64,000 nucleotides of DNA from Microcoleus sp. (GCA_042408215.1 JAYFMW010000007.1:64001-128000), one strand, 5' to 3'; counted from the stretch's first letter, positions 32,493 to 64,000 are shown. Notes: a model not told the origin generated them from the letters alone. A program made the numbers and translations.

Positions 32493-32552
32493 TGTTTTCC
32501 GGTGTATTACCGCTCACAAGCGAATTTCCATTTCAGAGTAGGAGTCAGGTCA
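32493..32552 (-). pseudogene. Collapsed remnant of a further toxin cassette
   Basis: 32493-32518 matches 38514-38539 and 32519-32552 matches 39061-39094 of cassette E. Confidence 0.7.
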
Positions 32553-32559
32553 GAGGATG

Positions 32560-32603
32560 ATTGTACTATAATTCAGAAGTTAAAATAATTGACTAGATAA
32601 TTT
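32560..32603 (+). promoter_or_regulatory. Conserved pentapeptide-gene promoter/leader, also before 33627, 34650 and 39146
   Basis: attgtacTATAATtcagaagttaaaataattgactagataattt-ATG repeated almost exactly four times. Confidence 0.7.
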
Positions 32604-33401
32604 ATGAATGCTGAAGAATTACTAAGACGATATGCTGATGGTGAAAGAGATTTTGCTGAGGTTGATTTGAGCGGTGTCGATTTGAACAAGGCAAATCTCC
32701 TTGATATCAGTCTCGCCAATGCCAATCTGATTAATGCTAACTTTAGTTATGCTGACTTGATTAATGCTAACTTGAGTGGTGCTAACTTGAGCAATGCTAA
32801 CTTGAATTGTATTGACTTGAACGACGCTAACTTGAGCAATGCTAACTTGAGCGAGGCTCACTTGGATGGTGCTCAGTTGATTAATGCTAATTTTAGTGGT
32901 GCTAACTTGAGAGAAGCTTGGTTGGAAGGGGCTGACTTGAGTGGAGCCAATCTAAGTAATGCCTGCTTGGAAAATGCAACTTTGCACTATGCTGACGCGA
33001 CTGATGCCAACCTCAGTGGAGCTAATTTGAAAAATGGTTTTTTATCTAGGCTCAACTGTGAAAATACTAACCTCACTGGAGCCGACCTCAGCGATGCAGA
33101 CCTCGGTGAAGCTGGTTTTGACAAAGCAACTCTAATTGGCGCGAATCTAAGTAACACCAAGCTGCATCAAACAGGGTTTGAAAATTCCGATCTTACTGGA
33201 GCTAACTTTAGTGGTTCAATTATGGATGAAACATCGTTTGATGGTTCAAATCTCAGTCACGCTAATCTGATGGGAGTTCAGCCAGAACCTAGTCTGATGG
33301 CAAAGAAGGTTAGGCTTATGGGAAAAGGGTTTGAAGAAGCTATCTTATGTAAGACTATCATGCCTGATGGTAGCATCCGCAATGATAATTGTACAGCTTG
33401 A
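32604..33401 (+). CDS. Pentapeptide repeat protein (candidate immunity)
   Basis: A(N/D)LXX repeats; N-cap EELLRRYADGERDF, C-cap LCKTIMPDG. Confidence 0.92.
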   Translation: MNAEELLRRYADGERDFAEVDLSGVDLNKANLLDISLANANLINANFSYADLINANLSGANLSNANLNCIDLNDANLSNANLSEAHLDGAQLINANFSGANLREAWLEGADLSGANLSNACLENATLHYADATDANLSGANLKNGFLSRLNCENTNLTGADLSDADLGEAGFDKATLIGANLSNTKLHQTGFENSDLTGANFSGSIMDETSFDGSNLSHANLMGVQPEPSLMAKKVRLMGKGFEEAILCKTIMPDGSIRNDNCTA

Positions 33402-35447: not shown

Positions 35448-35514
35448 GGAATGCTAAACATTACTAAAAACAGATATTCATCTGATTTCTGTTTCAATAG
35501 GAGTCAGATAAATT

Positions 35515-35635: not shown

Positions 35636-35640
35636 ATTTA

Positions 35641-38600
35641 TTATTCCTCCTCAAGTTCCTCAGATTCACCCTCAAGCTCCTCAAGTTCCTCTTCCGGCTC
35701 TGTAGGGTCTTCGGGAAGTGGCGGTGGATTTGATTTCCAAGGAAGGCTAGCCCAAGTATCTCCAATAGATTCTTTACTGGGAAAGATGTATTTGATATCT
35801 TTGATATCTTGTTTTATTTCTTGAGGAAGAAGAGGGAATAGATCGTAGCCGATCTTGGTTTCTATTTCTTCAAGAGACCAGACAGGACGTTGAGTGAGAT
35901 CGTCAATCTTACTCCAATCCTTGTTTCTCCAGCCTTCGGCAATGTTACGGGGGTCTTGATTTGGATAATAAAAACCAACGGCATATACAGGAGTTGCGCT
36001 AGGGTCTGCACCCGGCTTATCCAAAACCACCATGACTTTCCATATATTTGCTGGAATTTGAATATCTTTACCGCCCGCATCCAAATTGTCCTTAATGCCA
36101 TCAATGCCATTAATGACATAGACTTCTTTACCGTTTAGCGCAAAATCTTGCCCGTAGTTTTCAAATTTCTCCCAAAAACTTACGCTATTATGTTTCGTCT
36201 GCTGTGGAACAATATTTGTTAGCAGATTGACAGCTTTACTGTCCTTGAGAGTAATACTGCGAGATGCCAGAGGTGTTTGATGACCTCCAACATAAGGAGC
36301 TCTATTTTTATAATCAGCGTTTGTCACTTGGTAAAAATCTGGTGGAAGGCTGCGATCGTTAGTGAAACCGCGCTTACTAGGATTTTGCTCTCCTGTCAAA
36401 TATATCGATGATTTATTGATCTGGAAACTCGCCCAGTTAGGTATATTTCCAGTACCGTTGTAAGACAGAGTATACTGCGGTTTTTCAAGCAGCAAGTTGT
36501 CTTTATAGAGATTCCCATCATAAGCAGCACCGCTATACCTTGCTGGACTGCTGCCATTCTTGGGTGTCGGTTCCCCAAATTTAAGAGAACTACTCTTGAA
36601 AAAGACATCATCTAAGTAAACCGCGTCGCTACCTTCCAATTCAAATTTGAGCGTCGCTGTTTTACCTCGGAACTTATCTAATTCTTTTTGTTGGGTTGAC
36701 CCTTGATAGAAAGTGTCAAATACATTAAAAGTTTCAAAACCTCTAGTCGCATATCCAAGTTTACGGGCAGCATCTTTTTCGAGATCGTTGTTGTAGAAAG
36801 AGTCTGATGTTCCTGTTAGAAAATTAGCTTCATCGAGAAGAATAATTTCAGTTATCTCTTCACCAGAAGCTACATCTTTTAGAGTAACTTTAAGCTTCCC
36901 ATGTCCATTAGCTGCTTCTTTGGGAACATGAATGTTGAACCGCAAAGACCCCCAATCTGGTACAACAAAGCGGTTGTGCGTCATGCTGTCACCACCCTTT
37001 AATTCCAGAGCATAGTTAGAGAAGTTAGGGTCATTACTATCAATACCCATCCTTTCTAGATAAGAGGTTCCAGGGATCTCATTGTTGTGTCGTAGGCTAC
37101 GTTGTTTGAGACTATCAATGGTACTCCAATTTACTAAATGCTTCGTGGGGTCTGCCAACTTTGATGTGGCACTATTGTGGAAAGACCACCCCGGAATTTC
37201 CTGAGAGATAGCATTCCGACCCAAATTTTCGGCAGCACTCTTATTAGGAATGTACTGGTCAAAATTCCCATTAAACAGAGTAGGAACCGCATAATCTCCC
37301 CGCATCCCAGCTTCAAGCGTATTATCAAAACTCACCGGAACGCGCCCAGTAGGGCTATACTGACGCTGCTCTTTACCTCCACCCAAAACAGAATAAAACC
37401 AACCCTCACCAACCCCTTCACCATTGCCATTATCATACCAAGGTTTAGCTGCCGGGAAATTCGGATCGAACATTTCGGGTAAACCCATTTTACCCAACAT
37501 ATCGTTAACTGCTTGAGGCTTCTCAGAAGCCTCCACATGAGGATACTGAAGTAAAACTTCCTCCAAGTCTAAATCAACTGTCCCCGCATACCATCCAAAT
37601 GCTCGCTTGTGCGTCCCTGCAATAACATCATCCTTAGTAAACCCAATCCGACTGTTTATCCGATCTGGTTCCTCCTCACGAGTACCGAGTAAAATCTCTC
37701 GGTCTGCCTTCCCTAAAGTAACACCCGACGCTTTAGGAAAATTCAGTCCAGCGGGTTTGGGATTCTTATCCAATTCCTCTTGTGGAAGTAGACCCAAAGC
37801 ACGACCATTAGGAGTAGCAGTACCACCATTCGGGTCAGCCACAGTTTGATAATAGTTATCAGCAAACGTAACATTATTCCAAACCTGAACCTTGGGTTCG
37901 TAGAAATCGCTGAAATTTGTTTCGATAAATTCCAGTAAATTTAATTTCAAACTAGGTTGGTAGAAATCGTGCGGGTCGATTGTTGTCATTTGGAGGTCTC
38001 GTGAGGCCATAGATTTGCCGCCCGCTTGGGGGAAAAAAGTCCCTAAACGCTGTACGATTTCGCTATTGACAACAGTACCCCGACTGAAACCCATGAAGTG
38101 CAGTGGCGAGTTGAACAAATCCCCCTGAGTGCGAATCAGGTTCCCTTGGCTGTCGTACAACCGCTTTAATTGATTGTTTTCATACTCTCCAACCTTACCC
38201 CCTAATGCCAGATCCAACTGCACCATAGAAGCAAACAAAGCATCAGCCGCGCCCTCAGAAAAGCCAACGTCAGGAATGACTGATTCTCTGTCCAACGACC
38301 ATTCATTCAGCAACACTAACGGTTTGTTATTGTTGAGGTATTTAATCTCCTTTCCATCTATAACCACACCTTTTTTTAACTTATTTGCCAAAGTTGATAA
38401 ATAAGCTGTTTCGCTGGTGTTAAGCCCGTCGGTCAACTCAGTTATTACCCGTCCCTGTAAATCTATAGGAATCCAGTTGCCTGTAGGCTTGTCGTAACGC
38501 ATAATTAACCCGCTGTTTTCCGGTGTATTGCCGCTAACAGTGGCAATTTTATTGGTCATTTGGAAAAAGGAATCAGGAATCCCAGACTGCACCGGCAAAA

Positions 38601-39094
38601 GTGTAAAACCATGAGTCAACACGCTCACGCTGCTGAAAGGACTGTTGCTAACAGGAAGTAAAGTTTTAAACTGCCCCAAATCTTTGGTCACAGCGCCGCT
38701 CTTACTCACAGCTTCAACAGCAAAATTGTAGTTCTGGCCCGCAGTAAGACTCCTCGGTAGCGTGAAGTTAGTGCTAGTATTTGCGGGGTCATTTAAAGGT
38801 TGGTCAAGAGGCGTAATCCCGTCGTGCCCGTACCACTTGCCAGTATCTTTCTTCCAAGTCGCCGTCAGAATCCGGTTGGGATTGAAGTCGTCATAACCGT
38901 TCCAAGGCTTGGAAAGAAGTTGACGCTTTTGTGTTTCCGAGAAGCCGGGAAGGAGTGCCGAATCTGATAAATCGACGACTTTATCCCAGGGCAATAAACC
39001 CTTGCCTTGCTCGAACGTACTGACAAAAAGATTGACCTCTTTCACATTCTCCCAACCAGGAGCAAACTGCCATTGAAAAGTAGGAGTCAGGTCA
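35641..39094 (-). CDS. Cassette E: 5'-truncated toxin copy (hydrolase domain plus NucA-like nuclease, acidic tail)
   Basis: Homology to the longer copies begins abruptly at DLTPTFQWQFAPGW; GFSRG; EKPQYTLSYN...NWASF...GGHQTP...TNIVPQ. Confidence 0.82.
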
Positions 39095-40066: not shown

Positions 40067-43000
40067 TTATTCACTCTCAAGTTCCTCAGATTCCTCTTCT
40101 GGATCTGTAGGGTCTTCTGGAGGTGGCGGTGGATTTGATTTCCAAGGAAGGCTATCCCAAGTATCTCCAATAGATTTTTGCTTTGGAAAAATGTACTTGA
40201 TATCTTTGATATCTTTTTTGATTTCTTGAGGAAGAAGAGGGAATAGATCGTAGCCGATCTCGTTTTCTATTTCTTCCAAAGACCAGACAGGACGTTGAGT
40301 ACGATCGTCTATCTTACTCCAATCCTTATTTCTCCACTTTGTGGCAATCTTACCAGGGTCTTCATTTGGATAATAAAAACCAACGGCATAAACGGGAGTT
40401 GTGGTAGGATCTGCACCTGGTTTATCCAAAACCAGCATGACTTTCCACAAATTAGCAGGAATTTGAATAGTTTTACCATCGGCATCAAATCTATCCTTGA
40501 TTCCATGAATGCCATTAATGACATAAACTTCTTTACCTTCCTTGGCAAAATCTTGCCCGTAGTTTTCAAATTTCTCCCACAGTGGGCTGTTATTTTTAAT
40601 CTGTTGTGGAACGATATTAGTCATCAGATTGACAAATCTCTTGTCTTTTATCGTAATGCTGCGAGCTGCTAGAGGTGTTTGATGACCTTGAACGTAACCC
40701 AAGGGGACTGCGCTATCGTAATCATTACTACTTACCCGATTAAAATTGGGTGGAAGGCTTTTGTCTATAATAAAAGATCGCTCAGTAGGATTAGGCTCAC
40801 CTGGCAAATATATCGATGATTTATCGATCTGGAAACTAGCCCAGTTAGGTATGTTTCCAGTACCGTTGTAAGACAGAGTATACTGCGGTTTTTCAAGCAG
40901 CAAGTTGTCTTTATAGAGATTCCCATCATAAGCAGCACCGCTATACCTTGCTGGACTGCTGCCATTCTTGGGTGTCGGTTCCCCAAATTTAAGAGAACTA
41001 CTCTTGAAAAAGACATCATCTAAGTAAACCGCGTCGCTACCTTCCAATTCAAATTTGAGCGTCGCTGTTTTACCTCGGAACTTATCTAATTCTTTTTGTT
41101 GGGTTGACCCTTGATAGAAAGTGTCAAATACATTAAAAGTTTCAAAACCTCTAGTCGCATATCCAAGTTTACGGGCAGCATCTTTTTCGAGATCGTTGTT
41201 GTAGAAAGAGTCTGATGTTCCTGTTAGAAAATTAGCTTCATCGAGAAGAATAATTTCAGTTATCTCTTCACCAGAAGCTACATCTTTTAGAGTAACTTTA
41301 AGCTTCCCATGTCCATTAGCTGCTTCTTTGGGAACATGAATGTTGAACCGCAAAGACCCCCAATCTGGTACAACAAAGCGGTTGTGCGTCATGCTGTCAC
41401 CACCCTTTAATTCCAGAGCATAGTTAGAGAAGTTAGGGTCATTACTATCAATACCCATCCTTTCTAGATAAGAGGTTCCAGGGATCTCATTGTTGTGTCG
41501 TAGGCTACGTTGTTTGAGACTATCAATGGTACTCCAATTTACTAAATGCTTCGTGGGGTCTGCCAACTTTGATGTGGCACTATTGTGGAAAGACCACCCC
41601 GGAATTTCCTGAGAGATAGCATTCCGACCCAAATTTTCGGCAGCACTCTTATTAGGAATGTACTGGTCAAAATTCCCATTAAACAGAGTAGGAACCGCAT
41701 AATCTCCCCGCATCCCAGCTTCAAGCGTATTATCAAAACTCACCGGAACGCGCCCAGTAGGGCTATACTGACGTTGCTCTTTACCACCACCCAAAACAGA
41801 ATAAAACCAACCCTCACCAACCCCTTCACCATTGCCATTATCATACCAAGGTTTAGCAGCCGGGAAATTCGGATCGAACAATTCGGGTAAACCCATTTTA
41901 CCCAACATATCGTTAACTGCTTGAGGCTTCTCAGAAGCCTCCACATGAGGATACTGAAGTAAAACTTCCTCCAGGTCTAAATCAACCGTCCCAGCATACC
42001 ATCCAAATGCTCGCTTGTGCGTCCCTGCAATACTATCATCTTTCGTAAACCCAATCCGACTATTTATCCGATCTGGTTCCCCCTGACGAGTACCGAGTAA
42101 AATCTCTCGGTCTGCTTGCCCTAAAGTAACACCATTAACTGTCGGAAAATTCAGTCCCGCAGGTTTAGGATTCTTATCCAATTCCTCTTGTGGAAGTTGA
42201 CCCAAAGCACGACCGTTGGGAGTAGCAGTCAAACCATTAGGATTAGCCACAGTTTGATAATAGTTATCAGCAAACGTAACATTATTCCAAACCTGAACCT
42301 TTGGTTCGTAGAAATCGCTAAAATTTGTGCTGATAAAACCAGGTAATTGTAAATTCAAACTAGGTTGGTAGAAATCGTGCGGGTCGATTGTTGTCATCTG
42401 GAGGTCTCGGTTAGCCATAGATGTTCCACCAGCTTGGGGGAAGAAAGTTCCTAAACGCTGTACGATTTCGCTATTGACAACAGTACCCCGACTGAAACCC
42501 ATGAAGTGCATGGGCGAATTGAACAAATCCCCCTGCTGGCGAATCAGCTTCCCTTGGCTGTCGTACAACCGCTTTAATTGATTACCTTCATATTCTCCAA
42601 CCTTACCCCCTAATGCCAGATCCAATTGCACCATTGAGGCAAACAAAGCATCAGCAGCACCTTCGGAGAAGCCAACATCGGGAATAACTGACTCCCTATC
42701 CAGCGACCATTCATTCAGCAACACTAACGGTTTGTTCTTGTTGAGGTATTTAATCTCCTTTCCATCTATAACTACCCCGGCTTTTAACTTATTTGCCAAA
42801 GTTGATAAATAAGCTGTTTCGCTGGTGTTAAGCCCGTCGGTCAACTCAGTTATCACCCGTCCCTGTAAATCTATAGGAATCCAGTTACCTGTAGGCTTGT
42901 CGTAGCGCATAATTAACCCGCTGTTTTCAGGTGTGTTGCCGCTAACAGTGGCAATTTTATTTGCCATTTGGAAAAAGGAATCAGGAATCCCAGACTGCAC

Positions 43001-43662
43001 CGGCAAAAGTGTAAAACCATGAGTCAACACACTCACGCTGCTGAAAGGACTGTTGCTAACAGGAGGTATGGTTTGAAACTGCCCCAAATCTTTGGTCACA
43101 GCCCCGCTATTACTCACAGCTTCAACAGCAAAATTGTAGTTCTGCCCCGCAGTAAGACTCCTCGGTAGCGTGAAGTTAGTGCTAGTATTTGCGGGGTCAT
43201 TTAAAGGTTGGTTAAGAGGCGTAATCCCGTCATGGCCGTACCACTTGTTAGTATCTTTCTTCCAAGTCGCCGTCAGAATCCGGTTGGGATTGAAATCGTC
43301 ATAACCGTTCCAAGGCTTGGAAAGAAGTTGACGCTTTTGTGTTTCCGAGAATCCGGGAAGGAGTGCCGAATCTGATAAATTGACAACCTTATCCCAGGGC
43401 AATAAACCCTTCCCTTTATCGAAGGTACTGACAAAAAGATTAACCTCTTTCACATCCTCCCAACCCGGAGCAAACTGCCATTGAAAAGTCGGAGTCAGGT
43501 CACTTGTAGTTGCACCAGACCCCTTCAAATTCAGCCAGTCAGTCGGTGCAATGCTCAAATCCCGTAAATTTCCCCCAGTACCGATGGGTGCGCGTGTTGT
43601 ACCTGACGGCACCCCATAAGTAAACTGATTAGCAGGTCGGTTCTCCTGAAGAATCCCATAGT
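40067..43662 (-). CDS. Cassette D: 5'-truncated toxin copy (hydrolase plus NucA-like nuclease, acidic tail)
   Basis: Homology begins at YGILQENRPANQFTYGV; GFSRG; VQGHQTP...TNIVPQ. Confidence 0.82.
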
Positions 43663-43724
43663 TAAATATCCTAACCTTCTTTTACTCCTTTTTATAATAC
43701 CTAGAGAATTGTAGTATAATTTAT

Positions 43725-43837
43725 AAACATGAATGTTGAACTTCAAAATACCGGATTTAGGCACAACAAACTGATTGTGTGTAATGCTGTTATCAGATGT
43801 TAATCTCAAAGCATAGTTAGGTTTAGCTGGATCGTAG
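43725..43837 (-). pseudogene. Degenerate toxin fragment
   Basis: YDPAKPNYALRLTSDNSITHNQFVVPKSGILKFNIHV matches cassette C YDPAQPNYALKLTSDDSITHNRFVVPDWGTLRFNLHV. Confidence 0.75.
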
Positions 43838-43858
43838 TAGAGATTTAGGAGGAGAGTT

Positions 43859-52400: not shown

Positions 52401-55400
52401 ACCGTGGGTCAGTACAGTGACGCTGCTGAAAGTGCTGTTGCCGTTGAGAGCAGGCGGTGGCGATGTTTTGAACTGCCCAACATCGAGATTTCGCTTTCCA
52501 TCCTTGCTCAAAGCTTCAACAGCCCAATGATAAGTCTGACCAGCCGTCAGAGTCCGATTATCGGGCAGTGTGAACTGGGTATTGGTGTTTGAAGGGTCAA
52601 GGGGTAGACCACCAAGCCCCACCCAGCCTTGACCGGGCTTCCAAGTCGCTGTCAGGATGCGGTTGGGGTTGTAGTCATAAGTACCGAACTGGGAGTTCCA
52701 TTTTGCTAACAAGTTTTGCTGCTGCTGTGGGCTGAGATTATTGAAGTTTGGATTTTGGATATTGGCGAGATCCTCCCACCTATCCTCTGGCAACAAACCC
52801 TCCCCTTTATCGAAGGTACTGACAAAAAGATTAACCTCTTTCACATCCTCCCAACCCGGAGCAAACTGCCATTGAAAAGTCGGAGTCAGGTCATTTGTAG
52901 TTGCACCAGGCCCCTTCAAATTCAGCCAGTCAGTCGGTGCAGAACTCAAATCCCGTAAATTGCCTCCAGTACCGACTGGTGCGCGTGTTGTCTGCGGCAG
53001 CACCCCATAAGTAAACTGATTAGCAGGTCGATTCTCCTGAAGAATCCCATAGTCAGCAGCAATACTAATAGCCGGATTTATATCATCAATAGGAACCCTT
53101 GTGAAATCAGCCGCAGTCACAGACTTCGCCGTAGTAGCATTGAAGAAAGGAGACTTAACACCCCTGTCAAGGCTGTCAATTTGGAATTGACCAGGATTGT
53201 CCAGGGTTTTGATGATCTCCTCGACATTAAAGGTATAAACCCCCCCAGCACTACCAGGAGCCGGGTAAGAAGAAAATAGGGATTTATTGTCATTCGATAG
53301 TACCAAATCGTTCGTCAGCCCCCCAGGAATCGGTCTGGTAGCAGCTACTAATTGAGGATTCGGTCCCAAGGGGTCTTTGATAATACCAATGTTGCTCCCA
53401 GAGCGCGGATCCGCATAGGGGTTGACATAATTTCTATAATTGCGACCCGCAACGAACGCATATCGCCCGTCACGCATTACCGTTACAGAAACTCCCTCGT
53501 TGACATCAAAGTAATCGTTGGCAAAACCCAACCCTAAAGGAATATAGCGGACAGCGGTAGCAAAATTGAGGGGGTCATCAGACGTAATTTCCAGCACGCC
53601 AAAGCCCTTGCTGTCATCCTGAAGGGGTAGAAAATCGGTTTGTATGCTAGCCAATCCGTTGGTGAAAACCATTTTTCGGGGGTCAGCGGTAGCTGCTATC
53701 CCCTCTGTCTCTGAAGCGGTGGCAATTACTCCAATCTGCTGGTGCCACTTCCGCTCGTTAGAACCCTCAGCGATCGGTTTGTCGCGAGGGTCAATGTTGA
53801 CCGCATAAATGCTACGGTTGCGTACTCGTTCATTATCGTCGGAACCCGTAGCGAAGAGCTTGCGCCCGTCGCTGCTGATGGCCAACTGGCTCAGTCCCAG
53901 TGGCGATGTAACGTTAATGGTTTGAACAACAGTGTGATAGGTTGCTGAGAAGGGGTCGATGTCGAGGACGTAGATGTTGGGCCGATCGCGATCGGCAATG
54001 TAAGCATAATTATCCTTGGGGTCGATCGCGATCGACTTAGGTTTAGCCCCCGCTGGTAGAACAATAGGATTGACACCCGGAGTATTGGGCTGGGTGTCCA
54101 CTTGTCGCAGTACCATCGGATCGACCATCGCGACGCCGCCTGATTCCCTTAAGACTACATAAACCCTCGTGCCGTCGCTAGTCACAGCGCTCGCTTCTGC
54201 GGCATCAGTAGACTTGTCGCCTACGGGGATTCTGGAAATTAACAAGTCCTTGCTTCTGGTAGCTTCTACCACTGCTTTTGGATTAGAACCCTGAATAACT
54301 ACCAGTTCGCTCAAACTTTTGGGGTTGATTGGGGGGAAGTTCTGGGTTGCAAAAACGTACTCTGCCCCCTGTGGCAGACGTATTGGATTGCTGCTGTACT
54401 CAATAGGTTTATACACCGGTGCCGTGCCGTTTTGCTCGACCAACTGATTTTGCTTCCTGGTCAAAACTATGCCGGATGCACCCAGGGGTAAGGTGTTGGG
54501 AACTTGTACGGCAACTTCAAACTGGTTGCCCCCAACAGAACGGCTGCGGTTGGGCAATATCGTTCCAGGGTACACCTGATTCCCGACCTGAAATTCCACA
54601 ACCAAGTCCTCAAACCGACTGCCTTTAGAGTCGCTGGCATTGTTGACCAGAATGTTGCCCCCCGTTAGGAAAAGAAGTGGTTCGCCTTTCTCAAATTGCT
54701 GGTTGTTCTCATCCTTGAATTTCAATTCAGCTTTTTGGAGGACAGGAGGTGTTGTGGGGTCAGAGGTGGTTGGGGCTGGCATATTCAAAGCTGCCTTAAA
54801 TGTGGCGGTGCCGTCGTCGTTTCGCTGGACACCCACCTCTGTGACGACGGGAAGTCCCACCTTGGGGATTGCTACCACCTGCACTGAAGATATGTCGCGA
54901 GTTACGGTAAAGGCTGGAGTGGTAACGAATTTGTCCGGGTCGATTAACTGACCGATATTTCCCAGGGGGTCAATGATGCCAAAAAATGCTAGGGGGAAGT
55001 TGTAGTTGAGGGTAAGCTGACCTTTGACTAAGGTGGCGCTGCCTGTCGGACTGGCGTAGACTACTGCGTATTCGCCTGGTCTGACCACGCCTGGATAGGG
55101 AGGAGACTGGGTGCGAATGTTGCCGTCATCTCCGACTATGCCTGATTCTTCTTGCAGCCAAATCGGATTCCAAGTGCCGATTGCGTCAGGAATTGCTCCT
55201 TTTCGCAGGAAGTATGCCACAGTTCCTGGTGCTAATCCGGCTGGTGCTGGTATTGCTAACTGGGCGGGTATATTCAGGGAGTTATCGCTAAAGTTTAAGT
55301 TGAAGGCTCCTGCAAATTCAAATCCCGGTGGTAGTGGTAGGGACAAGTTTTGTTGGTTGACTGGGGCAATGCTGACGGTTGCATTCTGTTTGAGAGCGCC

Positions 55401-56500
55401 CGGAGGTATCATGACTGCTAGGGTTCCGTCGCTTGAGTTGATGATGCCACCGTCGGTTCCCAAGGCTGTTGTGCCGATTTTCGGTGCTTCGACTCGAACT
55501 GGAATGGTGGCGGATGCGGTTCCGTGAATGGCTGTGACGGTGGCATCGCCAATGCCGACTGCTGTAATGGTGCCGTCGGGACTGACGTTGAGGATGTTGC
55601 TGTTGTTGCTAAAGTAGCGCGTACCTGTGCTGGCTGCGGTTAAGTTGGCTTCGGTGAAGTTGGAGTTTAAGCTGAGGGAGAGTTTCCGCGTTGCGCCAAC
55701 AGATAGGGAGACGGCATCTGGGTAGGGGTCTAGTCCGTACATTTCGGCTAGTATCTGATGCAGTTGAGCGTCTGTTGTGGGTGCTGGCATCGTCCCAATT
55801 CGGATTGGGGTGACTGCTTGTAGGTTATTTCGACTTGCGCTCAAAACTGAAGTACCGTTGGTTAAACCTGTCACTTTCCCCGTTGGATCAATTGGTGCTA
55901 CTTCTGGATTTATTGAAGTGTAAGTTAGATAAGAATCTGGGAGCACTACACCTTTTTGGTCGGCAAAATCTCCGAGCACAATCAATTCCGTATTTTCTCC
56001 TGCATTGAGGCTCGGATTTCGCTTCACAAAATCTAGATTCAGCAGGGGAACATCGCTGACATTGACTGTCACGCGCGCGGGCGTTGAACTCCCAAAAGCG
56101 TCGCTGGCAAGGAAATCAAAGCTGGCAATTCCAGAGAAGCCGATTGCTGGTTTAAACGATGCTTTGTTCGTTAAGGGATTGAAAATTACAGTACCGTTTA
56201 CTGGACCCTGGACGCTAATTGTGAGAGGGTCGCCCTCTGCATCTGTGGCAAGATTGTCTAATGAAATAGTTGTCTCTAATTCTGTATAAGTCCGAGTGCT
56301 TGTCGGTGAAACAACGGGCGGATTGTTGTCAGAATTCGGGGGATTGGCTTCGGCGAGCAATTGTTGTCCTAAGGTCGTATTGCGCCATTCTTTGTCAGGG
56401 TTGATGACTGTATCTAGCAGCGGTGCGTTTCCTGTTGCGCCACTAATTTTAAAGATTAGGTCATTGTAATCTCTGTCTGAGTTCGCTGATGATGCGGGTG
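49485..56500 (-). CDS. Cassette B: long 5'-truncated toxin copy (DUF4114-like end, Ig-like repeats, beta-propeller, hydrolase, NucA-like nuclease)
   Basis: Frame is open to ~56546 without ATG or signal peptide and reads SDRDYNDLIFKISGATGNAPLLDTVINPDKEWR upstream of the ORF call; GFSRG; YRKGHLLP...TNVIPQ. Confidence 0.82.
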
Positions 56501-56614
56501 ATTGAGAAATGCTTGTAATTGCAGTAGTATTTGAATAAAAATAGTTTTAAACATACAAATACTCTTACCTGGGATTCTGGTTATTATTGTAAATAAATTC
56601 TAGGAGACAAAGTT

Positions 56615-57418: not shown

Positions 57419-60400
57419 TTATGGCAAGCGCTCAAAGATTGTATTCTTAATCCGTTCTTTGCCTAAAGACTCTGGCAGATTAGACAAGAATTGGTATTGG
57501 GGAGATATACCTGGCAAATCTCCATTGAGCAAGTTTTCCAAGTTGTGGATCGATTGTTTTTGATACCCACTTCTTGCGTCGTTACCCAAATAGATACCAT
57601 AGTGAGCATACTGAGGGAGTTCGGTGTTTTTGTCTTTAGTCATAACTACTTTCCACAGACCGACTGGGAATTGGATGAGGGGATCTAAGTTTGAATTCTG
57701 CGAGATCCCCGTATAGGGACGCTGGCTGGGATTGTCGTAGTACCCATATCCCCCGGCAAACATATAGGTTTCTAGACCGCTTGAGTTAGGCGAATTAATT
57801 ACACCTCTGATTTGGCCTTCAATAGTCTCCCAAATTCCTCGATTGTTACTGCTCTCTTGAGGAAGTAAGTTCGTCGTTAAGAAAGTAGCATAAAGATCCT
57901 TAGCTGTCCTGCTTCTATCAGCAGCCGGAGCCATGTGACCCCGATCTATTCCGAGGATGGGAATGTAGTTCCCGTTGTCATCAATTTCAAAATCTACGTA
58001 CCCATCGGGATACCGATCGCCTTTTCGATTGTCTACTACTTGCCCATCTTTATCTTTGAGATAAAGCGCATCATAGTCACTATCTTTTACCGAATACCAG
58101 CTAGTTTTCACTAATTCCGGGTCTTGAGCAAAGCCCAAGAACGGCGGTCTTTTAATATCTCCTAACCACGTTTTATCTAATTTCCAACCAACCCAATTAA
58201 CGGTATTTTTGCTGCGGTTATAAGAAAGAGTGTATTGAGGCTTTTCAATCAAAAAGTTATTTTCAAACTGAAAATCGTTTCTGGCTTCAGTAGGATTCCC
58301 CCACTTCAGAACTTCACTCTTGAAGAATGCGTTGTCTATATACACAGGCTCCTCACCTTGCAATTCAAACGTGAGTTTGGCAACTTTACCTCTCAGGCTG
58401 GGAGGTACATCAATATGGAAAGTTTCAAAGCCAGATGAGCCGTAACCAATGGTATCCTTGTCATAGCCGTAATTGCCAGGTATATTAACCTCATATGTTT
58501 TGCGACTCCCATCTGGCTCTCGCTCTCTCAAGCTAGTTCTTGTGGCTTTCTCCGTTGTGGGTTCAGATTCTTCTAGCGAAATTTCTCCTATTTTTACATT
58601 TTCCGGCGAACCTACTTCCTCCAGATACACCTTGAGTCTTCCACCTTTGTTCAAAGATGACTCTGGAACGTGAATATCTAAACGCAATACTCCCCAATCC
58701 GGTACAACAAAGCGATTGTGCGTAATGCTCTCGCCCGCACCTAATTTTAGAGCATAATTGGGTTGATAATTTTGAGCTTGAGAGTTAATACCTAATAAGC
58801 TCAAGTAATTGGAAAAATTGGGAGATTGTTGAGCTATCTCATTCCACTCTACAAGGTTGTTGATAGGTGACACCAAAGTTGATGTGGCACTATTATGAAA
58901 AGACCACCCAGGAATTTCCTTAGAGATAGTATTCCGACCAAATTCTTCAGCCCCACTCTTATTCGGAATAAACTGGTCAAAATTGCCATTAAACAGAGTA
59001 GGAACCGCATAATCTCCCCGCATCCCAGCAGAAAGAGTATTATCAAAACTCACCGGAACGCGCCCAACAGAACTCAACGTCCGCTGCTCTTTACCTCCAC
59101 CCAAAACAGAATAAAACCAACCCTCACCAACCCCTTCACCATTGCCATTATCATACCAAGGTTTAGCAGCCGGGAAATTCGGATCGAACATTTCGGGTAA
59201 ACCCATTTTACCCAACATATCGTTAACTGCTTGAGGATTCTCAGAAGCCTCCACATGAGGATACTGAAGTTTTACTTCCTCCAGGTCTAAATCAACCGTC
59301 CCAGCATACCATCCAAATGCTCGCTTGTGCGTCCCTCCAATAACATCATCTTTTGTAAACCCAATCCGACTGTTTTCACGACCTGGTTCCCCCTGACGAG
59401 TACCGAGTAAAATCTCTCGGTCTGCTTGCCCTAAAGGATCGCCCTTAACTGTAGGAAAATTCAGTCCAGCGGGTTTCGGATTCTTATTCAACTCCTCTTG
59501 TGGAAGTAGACCCAAAGAACGACCATTAGGAGTAGCAGTCAAACCATTAGGATTAGCCACAGTCTGGTAATAGTTATCAGCAAAAGTCACATTATTCCAA
59601 ACCTGAACTTTTGGTTCGTAGAAATCGCTGAAATTTGTGCTGATAAAACCAGGTAATTGTAAATTCAAACTAGGTTGGTAGAAATCATGCGGGTCGATTG
59701 TTGTCATCTGGAGGTCTCGGTTAGCCATAGATGTTCCACCAGCTTGGGGGAAGAAAGTTCCTAAACGCTGTACGATTTCGCTATTGACAACAGTACCCCG
59801 ACTGAAACCCATGAAGTGCAGTGGCGAGTTGAACAAATTCCCCTGCTGGCGAATCAGCTTCCCTTGGCTATCGTACAACCGCTTTAATTGATTGCCTTCA
59901 TACTCTCCAACGCCACCCCCCAACGCCAGATCCAATTGCACCATTGAGGCAAACAAAGCATCAGCAGCGCCTTCGGAGAAGCCAACATCGGGAATAACTG
60001 ATTCTCTATCCAGCGACCACTCTGGCAGTAACACTAACGATTTATTCTGGTTAACATAGTTAGCCTGAATATTGTTAGTTAAAGTCCGAAAATAGTTAGT
60101 ATCTGTTGGTTGCAGTCCACCCGTTAAAGTTGTTAAAACTCCTCCATTTTTATCAATAGGAATCCAAGACCCGGTGGGTTTTTCGTAGCGCAAAATTAAC
60201 CCATCATTACCAGTTTTTGCAATACTGTCAGCTACCTCGTAGAAGGAGTCAGGAATTCCCCCTTGGCCGGGCAAAAGTGTAAAACCATGAGTCAACACGC
60301 TCACGCTGCTGAAAGGACTGTTGCTAACAGGAAGTAAAGTTTTAAACTGCCCCAAATCTTTGGTCACAGCGCCGCTATTGCTCACAGCTTCAACAGCAAA

Positions 60401-63400
60401 ATTGTAGTTCTGCCCCGCAGTAAGACTCCTCGGTAGCGTGAAGTTAGTGCTAGTATTTGCGGGGTCATTTAAAGGTTGATTAAGAGGTGTAATCCCGTCA
60501 TGGCCGTACCACTTGCCAGTATCTTTCTTCCAAGTCGCTGTCAGAATTCGGTTGGGATTGAAATCGTCATAACCGTTCCAAGGCTTGGAAAGAAGTTGAC
60601 GCTTTTGTGTTTCCGAGAATCCGGGAAGGAGTGCCGAATCCGATAAATTGACAACCTTATCCCAGGGCAATAAACCCTCCCCTTTATCGAAGGTACTGAC
60701 AAAAAGATTAACCTCTTTCACATCCTCCCAACCCGGAGCAAACTGCCATTGAAAAGTCGGAGTCAGGTCATTTGTAGTTGCACCAGGCCCCTTCAAATTC
60801 AGCCAGTCAGTCGGTGCAGAACTCAAATCCCGTAAATTGCCTCCAGTACCGACTGGTGCGCGTGTTGTCCCCGGCAGCACCCCATAAGTAAACTGATTAG
60901 CAGGTCGGTTCTCCTTAGTAATCCCATAATCAGCAGCAATACTAATAGCCGGATTTATATCATCAATAGGAACCCTTGTGAAATCAGCAGCAGTCACAGA
61001 CCTCGCCGTAGTAGCATTGAAGAAAGGAGACTTAACACCCCTGTCAAGACTATCAATTTTGAATTGACCAGGATTGTCCAGAGTTTTAATCATTTCCTCA
61101 ACATCGAAAGCATAAACGCTCCCAGCACTACTAGGAGCTGGGTAAGAAGAAAATAGGGATTTATTGTCATTCGATAGTACCAAATCGTTCGTCAGTCCCC
61201 CAGGAATCGGTCTGGTAGCAGCTACTAATTGAGGATTTGGCCCCAAGGGGTCTTTGATAATACCAATGTTGCTTCCAGAGCGCGGATCTGGCTCGAGAGC
61301 GACATTATCTCTATTGTTGCGACCTGCAACAAACGCATACCGCCCGTCACGCATTACCGTTACAGAAACTCCCTCGTTGACATCAAAGTAATCGTTAGCA
61401 GAACCCAGCGATAAATCTATGTAGCGGTTAGTGGCTGTAAAGTTAAGGGGGTCATCCGATGCGATCTCAAGCACCCCGTAGCCCTTACCGTCCGTAGTGG
61501 TGTTCCCACTAGTGAAAATCATCGCTTTGGGATTTGAGGTAGCCGTCAGCCCTGTAACTCCCAGCGGCCCTGTAGGTCCCAGCGGTCCTGCAACGGCTCC
61601 AATTTGCTCGTGCCATTTGCGAGGGTTAGAGTTAGGTTGGTTTGGTCGGTCTTTAGGGTCAATGTTGACCGCGTAAATGTAATTGTCGGACGCGGTAGCA
61701 AAAAGCTTGTGCCCGTCACTGCTAATTGCCAGATTACGCAGTTTGGTGGTGTTTGAGCCGAGGTTTATGGTTTTGATGACCTGATGGTACGTTGTTGAGA
61801 AGGGGTCGATGTCGAGGACGTAGATGTTGGGCCGATCGCGATCGGCAATGTAAGCATAATTATCCTTGGGGTCGATCGCGATCGCCCCCGGTAGAGCACC
61901 GGCAGGCAATGCAATGGGGTTGACACCTAGAATATCCGGCTGAGTATCTACCTGCCGCAAAACCATCGGATCTACCAAAACTACTTGACCTGATTGCCTT
62001 AAGGTCACGTAAGCCCGAGTGCCGTCGCTAGTTGTCGCGGTCGCCTCCGCCCAGCCACCCACAGGAATGCTTGACAGTAGCAAGTCACTGCTGCGAGCAG
62101 CTTCCACCACAGATTTGGGGTCCGTACCGTCCAAAACGGCCACCCGGTTAGCGCCGCCCAAGGCTGCAAAGACGTACTCGGCCCCCTCGGGCAACTGCAT
62201 GGAATTGCTGCTGTACTCCATTGCTTCGTACACCGGCGCCGTGCCGTTTTGTTCTACCAACTGATTTTGTTTCCGAGTCACAACGATGTGGGATGCCCCC
62301 AACGGCACGGTGTCGGGTACTCTCACCGCTACTTCATACTGATTGCCCCCGAGATTCCGGCTGCGGTTGGGCAATACCGTTCCCTCATACACGCGATTCC
62401 CAACCTGAAATTTCACAACCAAGTCCTCAAACCGACTGCCTTTGGAGTCGCTGGCATTATTGACTAAAATGTTGCCCCCCGTCAGAAATAAGAGGGGCTC
62501 ATTGTTCTCAAATTGCTGGTTGTTCTCATCCTTGAATTTCAGTTCAGCCTTTTGGAGGACAGGAGGTGTTGTGGGGTCAGAGGTAGTTGGGGCTGGCATA
62601 TTCAAAGCTGCCTTAAATGTGGCAGTACCGTCGTCGTTTCGCTGCACGCCCACCTCTGTGACTACGGGAAGTCCCACCTTGGGGATTGCTACTACCTGTA
62701 CTGAAGATATGTCGCGAGTTACTGTAAAGGCCGGGGTGGTAACGAATTTGTCCGGGTCGATTAACTGACCGATGTTTCCCAGGGGGTCAATGATGCCAAA
62801 AAATGCTAGGGGGAAGTTGTAGTTGAGGGTAAGCTGACCTTTGACTAAGGTGGCGCTGCCTGTCGGACTGGCGTAAACTACTGCGTATTCGCCCGGTCTG
62901 ACTACACCTGGATAGGGAGGAGACTGGGTGCGAATCTTGCCGTCATCTCCGACTATGCCTGATTCTTCTTGCAGCCAAATCGGATTCCAAGTGCCGGTTG
63001 CGTCAGGAATTGCTCCTTTTCGGAGGAAGTATGCTACAGTTCCTGGTGCTAATCCGGCTGGTGCTGGTATTGCTAACTGGGCGGGTATATTCAGGGAGTT
63101 ATCGCTAAAGTTTAAGTTGAAGGCTCCTGCAAATTCAAATCCCGGTGGTAGTGGTAGGGACAAGTTTTGTTGGTTGACTGGGGCAATGCTGACGGTTGCA
63201 TTCTGTTTGAGAGCGCCCGGAGGTATCATTACTGCTAGGGTTCCGTCGCTTGAGTTGATGATGCCACCGTCGGTTCCCAAGGCAGTCGTGCCGATTTTCG
63301 GTACTTCGACTCGAACTGGAATGGTGGCGGATGCGGTTCCGTGAATGGCTGTGACGGTGGCATCGCCAATGCCGACTGCTGTAATGGTGCCGTCGGGACT

Positions 63401-64000
63401 GACGTTGAGGATGTTGCTGTTGTTGCTAAAGTAGCGCGTACCTGTGCTGGCTGCGGTTAGGTTGGCTTCGGTGAAGTTGGAGTTTAAGCCGAGAGAGAGT
63501 TTCCGGGTTGCACCGGGTGTCAGGGAGACGGCATCTGGGTATGGGTCTAGTCCGTACATTTCGGCTAGTATCTGATGCAGTTGAGCGTCTGTTGTGGGTG
63601 CTGGCATTGTCCCAATTCGGATTGGGGTGACTGCTTGCAGGTTGTTGCGACTCGCGCTCAAAACTGAAGTGCCGTTGACCAAACCTGTCACTTTCCCCGT
63701 TGGATCAATTGGTGCTACTTCTGGATTGAAAGAAGTGTAAGTTAAATAAGAATCTGGCAGCACTACACCTTTTTGGTCGGCAAAATCTCCGAGCACAACT
63801 AATTCCGTATTTTCTCCTGCATTGAGGCTCGGATTTCGCTTCACAAAATCTAGATTCAGCAGCGGAACATCGCTGACGTTGACTGTCACCCGCGCGGGAG
63901 TTGAACTCCCAAAAGCGTCGCTGGCAAGGAAATCAAAGCTGGCAATTCCAGAGAAACCGGTTGCTGGTTTAAACGATGCTTTGTTAGTTAAGGGATTGAA
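57419..64000 (-). CDS. Copy A: giant multidomain protein with C-terminal NucA-like nuclease (5' end outside the window)
   Basis: Frame is open to base 64000; same domain order as B; WGNPT, EKPQYTLSYN, NWVGWKL, IDRGHMAP, TNLLPQ..NN. Confidence 0.88.
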   Translation of the reverse strand, partial: FNPLTNKASFKPATGFSGIASFDFLASDAFGSSTPARVTVNVSDVPLLNLDFVKRNPSLNAGENTELVVLGDFADQKGVVLPDSYLTYTSFNPEVAPIDPTGKVTGLVNGTSVLSASRNNLQAVTPIRIGTMPAPTTDAQLHQILAEMYGLDPYPDAVSLTPGATRKLSLGLNSNFTEANLTAASTGTRYFSNNSNILNVSPDGTITAVGIGDATVTAIHGTASATIPVRVEVPKIGTTALGTDGGIINSSDGTLAVMIPPGALKQNATVSIAPVNQQNLSLPLPPGFEFAGAFNLNFSDNSLNIPAQLAIPAPAGLAPGTVAYFLRKGAIPDATGTWNPIWLQEESGIVGDDGKIRTQSPPYPGVVRPGEYAVVYASPTGSATLVKGQLTLNYNFPLAFFGIIDPLGNIGQLIDPDKFVTTPAFTVTRDISSVQVVAIPKVGLPVVTEVGVQRNDDGTATFKAALNMPAPTTSDPTTPPVLQKAELKFKDENNQQFENNEPLLFLTGGNILVNNASDSKGSRFEDLVVKFQVGNRVYEGTVLPNRSRNLGGNQYEVAVRVPDTVPLGASHIVVTRKQNQLVEQNGTAPVYEAMEYSSNSMQLPEGAEYVFAALGGANRVAVLDGTDPKSVVEAARSSDLLLSSIPVGGWAEATATTSDGTRAYVTLRQSGQVVLVDPMVLRQVDTQPDILGVNPIALPAGALPGAIAIDPKDNYAYIADRDRPNIYVLDIDPFSTTYHQVIKTINLGSNTTKLRNLAISSDGHKLFATASDNYIYAVNIDPKDRPNQPNSNPRKWHEQIGAVAGPLGPTGPLGVTGLTATSNPKAMIFTSGNTTTDGKGYGVLEIASDDPLNFTATNRYIDLSLGSANDYFDVNEGVSVTVMRDGRYAFVAGRNNRDNVALEPDPRSGSNIGIIKDPLGPNPQLVAATRPIPGGLTNDLVLSNDNKSLFSSYPAPSSAGSVYAFDVEEMIKTLDNPGQFKIDSLDRGVKSPFFNATTARSVTAADFTRVPIDDINPAISIAADYGITKENRPANQFTYGVLPGTTRAPVGTGGNLRDLSSAPTDWLNLKGPGATTNDLTPTFQWQFAPGWEDVKEVNLFVSTFDKGEGLLPWDKVVNLSDSALLPGFSETQKRQLLSKPWNGYDDFNPNRILTATWKKDTGKWYGHDGITPLNQPLNDPANTSTNFTLPRSLTAGQNYNFAVEAVSNSGAVTKDLGQFKTLLPVSNSPFSSVSVLTHGFTLLPGQGGIPDSFYEVADSIAKTGNDGLILRYEKPTGSWIPIDKNGGVLTTLTGGLQPTDTNYFRTLTNNIQANYVNQNKSLVLLPEWSLDRESVIPDVGFSEGAADALFASMVQLDLALGGGVGEYEGNQLKRLYDSQGKLIRQQGNLFNSPLHFMGFSRGTVVNSEIVQRLGTFFPQAGGTSMANRDLQMTTIDPHDFYQPSLNLQLPGFISTNFSDFYEPKVQVWNNVTFADNYYQTVANPNGLTATPNGRSLGLLPQEELNKNPKPAGLNFPTVKGDPLGQADREILLGTRQGEPGRENSRIGFTKDDVIGGTHKRAFGWYAGTVDLDLEEVKLQYPHVEASENPQAVNDMLGKMGLPEMFDPNFPAAKPWYDNGNGEGVGEGWFYSVLGGGKEQRTLSSVGRVPVSFDNTLSAGMRGDYAVPTLFNGNFDQFIPNKSGAEEFGRNTISKEIPGWSFHNSATSTLVSPINNLVEWNEIAQQSPNFSNYLSLLGINSQAQNYQPNYALKLGAGESITHNRFVVPDWGVLRLDIHVPESSLNKGGRLKVYLEEVGSPENVKIGEISLEESEPTTEKATRTSLREREPDGSRKTYEVNIPGNYGYDKDTIGYGSSGFETFHIDVPPSLRGKVAKLTFELQGEEPVYIDNAFFKSEVLKWGNPTEARNDFQFENNFLIEKPQYTLSYNRSKNTVNWVGWKLDKTWLGDIKRPPFLGFAQDPELVKTSWYSVKDSDYDALYLKDKDGQVVDNRKGDRYPDGYVDFEIDDNGNYIPILGIDRGHMAPAADRSRTAKDLYATFLTTNLLPQESSNNRGIWETIEGQIRGVINSPNSSGLETYMFAGGYGYYDNPSQRPYTGISQNSNLDPLIQFPVGLWKVVMTKDKNTELPQYAHYGIYLGNDARSGYQKQSIHNLENLLNGDLPGISPQYQFLSNLPESLGKERIKNTIFERLP

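Follow-up and report, generated by a model that had tools for sequence, protein, structure and literature searches.

We detected in a genome of the filamentous cyanobacterium Microcoleus sp. (GCA_042408215.1) an array of giant nuclease-tipped genes facing pentapeptide-repeat protein (PRP) genes, which we interpret, with a probability of roughly 0.6, as a polymorphic nuclease and PRP-inhibitor system. The array spans positions 32493-64000 of the analysed stretch JAYFMW010000007.1:64001-128000 (64,000 nt, hereafter the window) and was described in an earlier note on this DNA as five minus-strand nuclease-tipped genes (A-E) opposite ten plus-strand PRP genes (P1-P10). Pfam agrees with both counts, placing PF01223 (Endonuclease_NS) at the C-terminus of 5/5 nuclease copies and PF00805 (Pentapeptide; tandem A(D/N)LXX repeats) above the cut-off in 10/10 small plus-strand ORFs. 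The further claim that no other gene type lies in this stretch was borne out, bar a single 130-aa relic ORF (43555..43947, minus strand), a fragment of the pre-tip region whose DNA at 43726-43836 is 84% identical to 46871-46981. No published description of the giant nuclease-PRP pairing was found in the literature.

All five nucleases have their stop codon 81-193 bp from the 3' end of the facing PRP gene. Copy E (57419..64000, minus strand, running on past the window to G000:C7:131033; nuclease domain 57419-58258) is the only full-length giant gene, with 3194-3204 aa, and faces the 240-aa P10 (56615..57337, plus strand, as are all PRP genes) across a gap of 81 bp. Copy D (49485..56546, minus strand, as are all nuclease copies; nuclease domain 49485-50363) has an open frame of 2353 aa, or 2291 aa from the first start codon at 56360, and lies opposite the 162-aa P9 (48822..49310). 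Two PRPs without a facing tip of their own are P8 (48060..48539, 159 aa), a candidate surplus immunity gene, and P7 (47398..47985, 195 aa). The shortest orphan, copy C (45722..47287, 521 aa; nuclease domain 45722-46489), is opposite the 231-aa P6 (44936..45631), beyond which lies P5 (43859..44800, 313 aa). Orphan copy B (40067..43612, 1181 aa; nuclease domain 40067-40906) faces P4 (39146..39964, 272 aa), and orphan copy A (35641..39045, 1134 aa; nuclease domain 35641-36498), with a CBM-like (~36490-37245) and a lipase-like domain (~37246-38658), faces P3 (34650..35447, 265 aa). The remaining PRPs are P2 (33627..34427, 266 aa), 91% identical to P3, and P1 (32604..33401, 265 aa), 80% identical to P4.

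All five window copies end in an active-looking beta-beta-alpha-metal nuclease domain of the NucA family. The PF01223 matches, of which the whole genome has seven, score 99-119.5 bits in the window against a cut-off of 23, and the closest solved chains to the tips are 2o3b_A and 1zm8_A (E 6e-66), which we take to be Anabaena NucA alone and with NuiA, in line with the NucA-type tips claimed before. The catalytic His (GH), the metal-binding Asn and a downstream acidic residue (E/D) are present in 6/6 genome copies (A-F) and in almost every one of the 79 domains aligned; the roles of the (D)RGH His, the TNxxPQ Asn and the acidic residue are presumed from the Serratia and NucA literature. Only E and C keep the Arg of DRGH; D and F have Lys in its place, and B and A have Gln or Gly. 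Its absence from four of six copies weighs against a polymorphic nuclease/inhibitor reading. Endonuclease_NS was also found in 4/6 other sampled genomes of the genus (1, 10, 6 and 1 matches) and had 0 matches in the other two; the system seems to be accessory and polymorphic within the genus.

The earlier note spoke of five copies of one giant protein with near-identical upstream DNA and five different nuclease tips. The five genes are indeed related and share a trunk, but only E is full length (~3,200 aa), and A-D are N-truncated orphans, whose alignment to E begins at E residue 909 (D), 2055 (B), 2105 (A) and 2651 (C). The trunk DNA is in fact 86-94% identical, in mosaic blocks, and the five tips fall into four families, because A and B (92% identity overall, 78% within the nuclease domain) are related subtypes. 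Compared with B and A, E is 82-100% identical to about E residue 2700 and 35-50% beyond that, so that the conserved trunk with divergent C-terminal toxin domain of polymorphic toxins is found here in E vs A/B, and in D vs F the trunks are about 60% and the tips about 90% identical. Further along, past the 3' end of the main gene, there are orphan toxin/immunity cassettes, D, C, B and A each having their own PRPs, and similar orphan arrays occur in two other genomes (G056 and G062). At its 5' end, C has a 259-bp candidate recombination tract (47073..47331) that is 94% identical to 50926-51184 in D, and a contig from an RNA library joins 47235 to 51089, exactly in register with it; contigs from RNA libraries are few, and such contigs cannot show transcription. 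Elsewhere in the genome, a second locus (contig C29) has a 1703-aa nuclease-tipped gene opposite two PRPs amid unrelated housekeeping genes, and a relic (contig C8) likewise comes with two PRPs.

The genome (7.36 Mb) contains 66 ORF matches to PRP profiles, about one per 110 kb, 14 of which adjoin nuclease tips; the PRP-nuclease pairing is not due to chance. The PRPs beside tips are acidic (median pI 4.58, 87% below 5.5), and the remaining 52 PRP ORFs have a median pI of 5.93 (38% below 5.5). For four PRPs, the NCBIfam profile penta_Alr5209 (NF052603, cut-off 125 bits) gave 171.3 (P6), 129.8 (P10), 126.4 (P1) and 74.1 bits (P9). The closest solved relatives are Np275-Np276, HetL and Alr5209, whose functions are unknown or unrelated; Qnr, MfpA and McbG-like chains are also among the profile matches.

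Pairing with a PRP extends to the relatives. The earlier note held that its reading would suffer if homologous giant nucleases usually lacked adjacent PRPs; in a neighbourhood survey of 78 related loci, all cyanobacterial, all with the Endonuclease_NS fold and not independent, many being from related Microcoleus and Tychonema genomes, a PRP gene adjoins the nuclease domain in 75/75 assessable loci (51 C-terminal and 24 internal), and the reading therefore withstands this test. Among the 51 C-terminal loci, defined by at least 400 bp of available downstream DNA, the PRP starts within 1 kb in 50 (46 convergent, 4 co-directional), and in the remaining one tip and PRP are separated by a transposase; counting L045, the orientation is convergent in 47/51. 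Pfam supports PF00805 in 48/48 first PRPs submitted from these loci. NuiA, the proven inhibitor of NucA, has no match (PF07924) in this 99.98%-complete genome, extending to the whole genome the absence noted earlier. Among 151 evenly sampled cyanobacterial genomes, NuiA is convergent and directly downstream in 6/14 stand-alone small NucA genes tested, and a PRP lies beside 7/7 giant-type nuclease matches; the PRP occupies the same convergent slot as NuiA beside stand-alone NucA.

The PRPs also co-vary with the tips. Across 54 tip-PRP pairs (1431 comparisons), tips of at least 70% identity (63 comparisons) are accompanied by PRPs with a median identity of 80% (minimum 50%), and tips below 50% (1326 comparisons) by PRPs with a median of 34% (maximum 56%). 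Where trunks are at least 75% identical but tips below 55%, PRP identity is 18-55%. At the syntenic PrmA/SerA locus, L038 has a trunk 85-91% identical with a different tip (33-35%) and a different PRP. D and F have trunks of 58%, tips of 86% and PRPs of 80% identity. P10 and a PRP of another locus (L011) share 92% identity, as do the tips beside them. Considering that PRP type tracks tip type and not trunk type, we conclude that the two are exchanged together, as a single cassette. Adjacency and co-variation, as in cognate immunity genes, are therefore both found here, in a convergent orientation and with immunity as a prediction.

The co-fold of a tip with its PRP, a check suggested by the earlier note, passed its controls for the nuclease domain of tip D and P9, with a score of 0.61 vs 0.00 for the best of three controls. 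This mark was reached by 116/157 solved complexes and 2/215 mismatched pairs. The alignments were self-built and unpaired, and one of three runs scored 0.00; runs share at least 66% of contacts, with a partner pLDDT of at least 85. The nuclease contacts predicted by the model (61-64, 74 and 101-104) flank the catalytic His69 and Asn100, and those predicted for P9 have a period of about 20 residues, corresponding to one helix face. We regard it as likely that the PRP is a cognate nuclease inhibitor.

An internal nuclease, with Big_9, PKD and Calx-beta domains after it, is found in 24/78 loci. The PRP ORF in these loci is antisense, 19-166 nt past the nuclease domain (PF00805 in 24/24), and the giant reading frame remains open across it; an antisense PRP within an open giant frame is new here. 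In 236/276 comparisons of the overlapping stretch, conservation is higher in the PRP frame than in that of the giant gene. An internal position with domains after it is an unusual place for a delivered toxin, and this arrangement misfits a simple C-terminal-toxin model. Rather tentatively, we suggest that PRPs could be a previously unrecognised cognate, probably DNA-mimicking immunity class for His-Me finger nucleases, and that the ancestral system would have had a protein-coding immunity gene antisense inside the giant toxin gene, in a conserved, dual-coding overlap that would couple the expression of antidote and nuclease. If so, this immunity role would partly explain the puzzling expansion of PRPs among cyanobacteria.

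Pfam and NCBIfam gave no match to a known secretion or trafficking domain in E or its relatives, and inspection by eye of E and its complete relatives gave no signal peptide or hydrophobic leader; a secretion or trafficking module of polymorphic toxins (T5SS, T6SS, T7SS or Sec leader) was thus not found by these searches. The marks of CDI and Rhs systems (TPS domain, FHA repeats, VENN motif, RHS/YD repeats) likewise had no Pfam match in A-E or full-length E. The surface location and the role in competition or kin discrimination put forward earlier are therefore putative, and we give delivery of the nuclease into neighbouring cells an even chance. An exported or surface nuclease might instead degrade extracellular DNA, for nutrients, for biofilm or mat remodelling or for barring foreign DNA, with the PRP shielding the producer cytoplasm as NuiA does and no delivery into other cells. 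The convergent slot shared with NuiA, the internal nucleases with PKD and Calx-beta domains of adhesin-like character behind them, and the lack of a recognised translocation or delivery domain fit this explanation, which we nevertheless find unlikely, as it does not explain the joint diversification of tip and PRP on trunks 75-98% identical, the retained arrays of orphan tip-PRP cassettes, or the surplus PRPs without a facing tip.

It is much less probable that the giant protein remains in the cell, as a toxin-antitoxin or cell-suicide module in which stress or phage attack would free the nuclease from the PRP. The missing signal peptide and a HerA-like ATPase directly upstream of E are compatible with such a module, but that neighbour is not kept in 15 other loci inspected, and the giant proteins contain Ig-like, cadherin-like, PKD, Calx-beta and CBM-like domains, which are typical of extracellular proteins. 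About equally improbable is that the PRP is no inhibitor but a tip chaperone or export adaptor, or that its gene throttles the giant gene via convergent or antisense transcription, for although the orientation is conserved (convergent in 47/51 C-terminal loci, antisense in 24/24 embedded ones) and the relevant passages of two papers treat PRPs beside T6SS nucleases as accessory proteins (PMC5714182, PMC10933656), the PRP is conserved as a protein sequence, even above the giant's in the overlap, and co-varies with the tip, and the contacts predicted by the co-fold lie on either side of the catalytic His.

Overall, the interpretation of the earlier note is partly supported: NucA-type tips, adjacency, co-variation and the co-fold speak for it, but no export signal was found, and the relatives show a single nuclease fold, with an internal nuclease in almost a third of the loci. 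In the polymorphic nuclease and PRP-inhibitor system that we propose, E and the four orphan copies, each ending in a nuclease, would be matched by a cytoplasmic acidic PRP encoded tail-to-tail. One face of the PRP beta-helix would cover the DNA-binding or active-site side of the cognate nuclease, blocking it as NuiA blocks NucA, possibly via DNA mimicry. Tip and PRP would travel jointly as a cassette, recombination between the homologous trunk tracts would bring orphan cassettes onto the expressed gene, and surplus PRPs may guard against the tips of other strains. A function as antidote would assign a role to these repeat proteins, which have long been enigmatic.

The system resembles Anabaena NucA/NuiA in nuclease subfamily and in the convergent geometry of the inhibitor slot, but the candidate inhibitor is a pentapeptide-repeat beta-helix instead of NuiA, and the nuclease, unlike NucA (~270 aa), lies within a protein of 1,100-10,000 aa, with tips and PRPs that are polymorphic and arrayed. 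In E-type colicins and S-type pyocins, a C-terminal His-Me finger DNase is tightly bound by a highly specific, co-varying acidic Im protein. The C-terminal His-Me finger nuclease and its acidic, co-varying candidate partner are alike here, although nuclease subfamily and immunity fold differ, and the colicin and pyocin immunity gene is co-directional, with known uptake domains, whereas the PRP gene is convergent. The Rhs/CDI/MafB-like layout recognised earlier holds: the trunk is mosaic, the tip can be swapped, the orphans form an array, and the small genes are in surplus. As far as those systems are covered in the consulted parts of PMC3482391, CDI (CdiA-CT/CdiI), Rhs and MafB share with this locus the conserved trunk, the variable C-terminal nuclease with an adjacent specific small gene, N-truncated orphans that have tracts homologous to it, and an excess of immunity-like genes beside the trunk-bearing main gene; they differ in that neither TPS, FHA, RHS, VENN or PAAR nor any further known element for trafficking was found here, that the small gene is convergent and not co-directional, and that there is one toxin fold only, with no alternative fold on the same trunk in any of the 78 loci. 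In the same source (Zhang et al. 2012), Tox-NucA is paired with Imm36, Imm-SUKH and Imm-NTF2, cyanobacteria are not listed for Tox-NucA in the parts consulted, and 'pentapeptide' occurs 0 times in 300,000 characters of text. The sections of Jablonska et al. 2017 (PMC5714182) on GH-E His-Me finger nucleases describe, in T6SS regions, a comparable nuclease toxin with an adjoining YjbI-like PRP gene, report no annotated immunity gene and leave the PRP 'of unknown function'; unlike the present case, that is a different nuclease group in a proteobacterial T6SS context, and those sections contain no co-variation or inhibitor proposal. Finally, MfpA, Qnr, AlbG and McbG are described in parts of PMC8145042 and PMC7980463 as DNA-mimic PRPs acting on DNA gyrase; while the proposed target here is instead a non-specific nuclease domain, they belong to the same fold family, are likewise acidic, and protect the cell against an agent that damages DNA via a DNA-binding enzyme.

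From 32.5 kb to the end of the window, five minus-strand genes (A to E), each with a C-terminal Endonuclease_NS domain, are interspersed with ten plus-strand genes (P1 to P10) encoding pentapeptide-repeat proteins (PRPs). Every nuclease gene ends tail-to-tail with a PRP gene, its stop codon lying 81–193 bp from the PRP gene's 3' end, and the only additional noteworthy ORF (130 aa) is a relic of the region preceding the tip, i.e., the C-terminal nuclease domain. The domain content, the facing gaps and the single relic ORF therefore confirm the array that an earlier note had claimed, namely five nuclease-tipped copies facing ten PRP genes. The description of these genes as five giant copies holds for the nuclease tip, present in all of them, but only E, which extends past the window to a total of 3194–3204 aa, is full length; alignment to E starts only at residue 909 for D, 2055 for B, 2105 for A and 2651 for C, which are thus progressively N-truncated orphans. 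Likewise, the upstream DNA, reported as near-identical, is highly identical in blocks but forms a mosaic when sliding identity is considered. E and D share 90–100% identity across E 900–1500, E and B/A share 82–100% across E 2064–2700 and 35–50% beyond, and C and D have in common only one 259-bp tract (94% identical). The tips do differ from each other, except that A and B are related (92% identical overall, 78% in the nuclease domain); the closer partner of each of these two tips is in another genome (91%). Scanning positions 32400–52000 for promoters and terminators gave 40 promoter-like and 16 terminator-like sites, compared to 38.5 and 17.0 in shuffled sequences, and thus no signal. Elsewhere in the window, an ordinary nitrate/nitrite assimilation cluster (6681–18091, plus strand) contains genes for a ferredoxin-nitrite reductase, an NrtABCD-like transporter and a molybdopterin nitrate reductase, with a higher G+C content (0.49–0.52) than the nuclease array (0.41–0.44). 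The 442-aa product of a minus-strand gene at 28377–29705 combines RRXRR and HNH domains, which is the architecture of IscB-type RNA-guided nucleases.

The pairing of nuclease and PRP genes is not due to chance. Of 66 PRP-profile ORF matches in the source genome (7.36 Mb, 99.98% complete, with Tychonema and Microcoleus as nearest relatives by sequence), 14 lie beside nuclease tips. A second locus, on contig C29 and flanked by PrmA/SerA and thioredoxin genes, has two PRPs facing a nuclease-tipped gene of 1703 aa, and a third, decayed one (contig C8, 163539–165052) retains a 142-aa nuclease fragment with two adjoining PRP ORFs. We further surveyed relatives by a pattern-plus-tblastn search with one genome per species, the best 80 of 117 relatives giving 78 loci, all of them cyanobacterial. 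Three loci ending 0–394 bp past the nuclease were left out of the adjacency count. Among the 51 loci with a C-terminal nuclease and at least 400 bp downstream, a PRP started within 1 kb in 50 (46 convergent, 4 co-directional), and Pfam confirmed all 48 first PRPs submitted. In the remaining locus, L045, an inserted DDE transposase gene (11361–12293, plus strand) separates the nuclease tip from the PRP; this PRP has no TTA, CTA or TCA codons, as in the embedded PRPs described below. Together with 24 loci of the embedded type, a PRP thus follows the nuclease in 75/75 assessable loci, and the usual lack of adjacent PRPs, which the earlier note had named as evidence against its reading, was not seen. 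In Prochloron, an RHS-repeat protein of 1145 aa (L054:11568–15002, plus strand) adjoins two PRPs after the giant nuclease gene. In another cyanobacterium, a 728-aa fusion of Trypsin_2 and Endonuclease_NS (L112:1354–3537, minus strand) has an adjacent KAP/AAA NTPase and no PRP.

The tip and its PRP also vary together. Over 54 tip–PRP pairs (1431 comparisons), tips at least 70% identical (63 comparisons) had PRPs with a median identity of 80% (minimum 50%), and tips below 50% (1326 comparisons) had PRPs with a median identity of 34% (maximum 56%). Where the trunk, i.e., the part N-terminal to the tip, was at least 75% identical but the tip below 55%, PRP identity was 18–55%. D and F, a further nuclease copy in the same genome, are 58% identical in the trunk, 86% in the tip and 80% in the PRP, and at the syntenic PrmA/SerA locus a relative (L038) combines a trunk of 85–91% identity with a different tip and a different PRP. 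Judged by these identities, tip and PRP behave as one cassette, so that the pairing and cassette behavior read from the window by the earlier note are largely borne out by adjacency and co-variation. A 444-nt contig (depth 4) from a soil RNA library joins 46995–47235 (tip C, 5' part) to 51089–51284, in a D-like trunk, with the joint (47235/51089) exactly in register with the 259-bp C/D homology tract, weakly suggesting that D-like trunks bearing a C-type tip may exist in nature. Stretches without cover in the RNA-library contigs carry no meaning, and DNA-run joints with short sides (21–33 letters) were left out of the analysis.

The most unexpected result is the form that the system takes in relatives, where the PRP gene lies antisense within the giant gene. 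In 22 loci and two cut loci, the giant ORF extends 170 to more than 3,000 residues beyond the nuclease, with Big_9, PKD and Calx-beta domains past it. That these internal-nuclease loci are PRP-free was ruled out, as an antisense PRP ORF was found inside the giant ORF in 24/24. In L012, a complete PRP gene (11537–12283, minus strand) lies antisense in the giant ORF directly past the nuclease, and the same layout is seen in L016, L021, L022, L024, L025, L026, L039, L044, L048, L054, L062, L066, L067, L068, L070, L071, L078, L079, L083, L085, L086, L087 and L088. In the annotated plasmid record of Calothrix brevissima, the strand opposite a 31,290-bp CDS named 'polymorphic membrane protein' carries a strong PRP ORF within that CDS. 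All 24 embedded ORFs encode 120–250 aa, start 19–166 nt past the nuclease domain and match PF00805, usually beginning with ATG and then an EELLxRYAAGERDF cap; the giant's own reading of the overlap gave no family match in the four cases tested. PRP and giant frames are codon-aligned in 24/24 embedded loci, compared to phases of 16, 11 and 17 in 44 separate convergent pairs, in which 5–43 stops break the giant's frame. The giant frame stays open because the PRP gene avoids TTA, CTA and TCA. Their count of zero in embedded PRPs arises by construction, since the internal class is defined by an open frame, and the informative parts of this codon test are the expectation from local codon usage (6–19) and the control (a median of 10 in 58 non-embedded PRPs). 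Within the overlap, the PRP reading is better kept than the giant's reading in 236/276 comparisons. A quick tree of the nuclease domains shows the two architectures intermingled, and its supported branches force at least six changes.

The tips are of the NucA type, as the earlier note had recognized. A profile of 52 nuclease domains matched 2o3b_A and 1zm8_A, the Anabaena NucA–NuiA complex and NucA, at E 6e-66; all six genome copies keep the catalytic His, the TNxxPQ Asn and the acidic residue downstream, and only E and C retain the motif Arg. The source genome has no match to NuiA in a profile search, in agreement with the earlier reading. Endonuclease_NS occurs in 21 genomes of an evenly drawn set of 151 from cyanobacteria. 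In this set, NuiA (PF07924) was convergent and directly downstream in 6/14 stand-alone small NucA genes tested (L090:1019–1426, L091:2175–2627, L095:2260–2682, L096:2356–2775, L098:2283–2684 and L099:1034–1456), and only 1/16 such genes had a PRP within 1.5 kb, while PRPs accompanied 7/7 giant-type loci retrieved from this sample. The geometry of NuiA is that of the PRP beside giant nucleases, which puts the PRP in a position otherwise held by a proven inhibitor. Co-folding, proposed in the earlier note, was done for one pair: the nuclease domain of tip D with P9, the PRP facing it, scored 0.61, and the best of three controls 0.00. This score was reached by 116/157 solved complexes and 2/215 mismatched pairs; individual runs with custom alignments gave 0.78, 0.61 and 0.00, with a contact agreement of at least 66% and a partner pLDDT of at least 85. 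The predicted nuclease contacts (61–64, 74 and 101–104) flank His69 and Asn100, and those on P9 are spaced about 20 residues apart, i.e., on one face of the beta-helix. We know of no solved PRP–nuclease complex that the model could have memorized. The tip-associated PRPs, which have no leader, are acidic (median pI 4.58, compared to 5.93 for the other PRP ORFs of the genome), and share an N-cap RYxxGxRxF (13/14 vs 9/52 others) and a C-terminal TxMPDG motif (10/14 vs 2/52). Among solved structures, these PRPs are closest to Np275-Np276, HetL and Alr5209.

The N-terminus of E has no visible hydrophobic leader, and inspection of the giants by eye gave no convincing double-glycine or other leader motif at the N-terminus. 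Its first ~830 residues are Pro/Thr/Ser-rich with 13-residue tandem repeats, followed by DUF4114, Big_9 and Big_2, a weak beta-propeller signal and a 470-residue domain (model pLDDT 76.5) with a GxSxG motif. Assignment of the latter as a lipase was rejected, the fold matches being weak (E about 3e-4, TM 0.25–0.48); the GxSxG serine is not conserved (of 44 sequences, 29 have Ser and 15 have Gly), which makes catalysis doubtful. A beta-sandwich of roughly 220 residues follows (pLDDT 71.6), with carbohydrate-binding modules as best matches (CBM27 at E 2.7e-5) and a conserved VYLDNVFFKS..L.FGNP motif at its C-terminal end, and the nuclease comes last. Compared by sequence with solved structures, the 849-aa trunk of A gave no matches at E up to 1, and domain profile searches found no known trafficking module in the giants. 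Downstream of two internal-type giants (L016:18149–21023 and L021:10764–13839) are genes for a PPIase and for an ABC transporter that carries cNMP-binding and C39 peptidase domains, a hint at type I secretion for this class; nothing comparable flanks the window's nuclease genes. A HerA-like ATPase with a HAS barrel and DUF87 (L008:10473–12209, minus strand) lies directly upstream of E, just past the window's right end, followed by a 479-aa PRP (L008:12771–14210, minus strand); as a conserved export partner it was dismissed, being absent at 15 other loci inspected. The window also encodes an 884-aa protein with a C-terminal Peptidase_C39_2 and no ABC module (404–3058, plus strand).

No description of a nuclease–PRP pairing was found in the literature searched, supplements aside. 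The word 'pentapeptide' is absent from the first 300,000 characters of Zhang et al. 2012 (PMC3482391), and the immunity partners of Tox-NucA in that part are Imm36, SUKH and NTF2. The nearest published hint is in Jablonska et al. 2017 (PMC5714182), where GH-E nucleases have YjbI-like PRPs of unknown function as neighbors and no immunity gene was found. What cyanobacterial PRPs do biochemically is, in the words of a 2021 review (PMC8145042), 'almost completely unknown', and a nuclease-inhibitor role, if true, would assign a function to one defined PRP subfamily and add a new fold to the catalogued immunity proteins. It would also place polymorphic nuclease systems in mat-forming cyanobacteria such as Microcoleus and Tychonema, with a bearing on kin recognition and on competition between strains. 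Bacterial genes that overlap at length in antisense are considered exceptional (PMC7103648), and the 24 embedded PRP genes would rank among the best-supported cases. Overall, the PRP is probably the cognate inhibitor of its nuclease (a probability of roughly 0.8), and whether the tips are delivered into neighboring cells is evenly balanced, both estimates following from the single toxin fold, the internal nuclease in a third of the family and the trafficking module searches. By the first two of these features, the family departs from classical polymorphic toxins.
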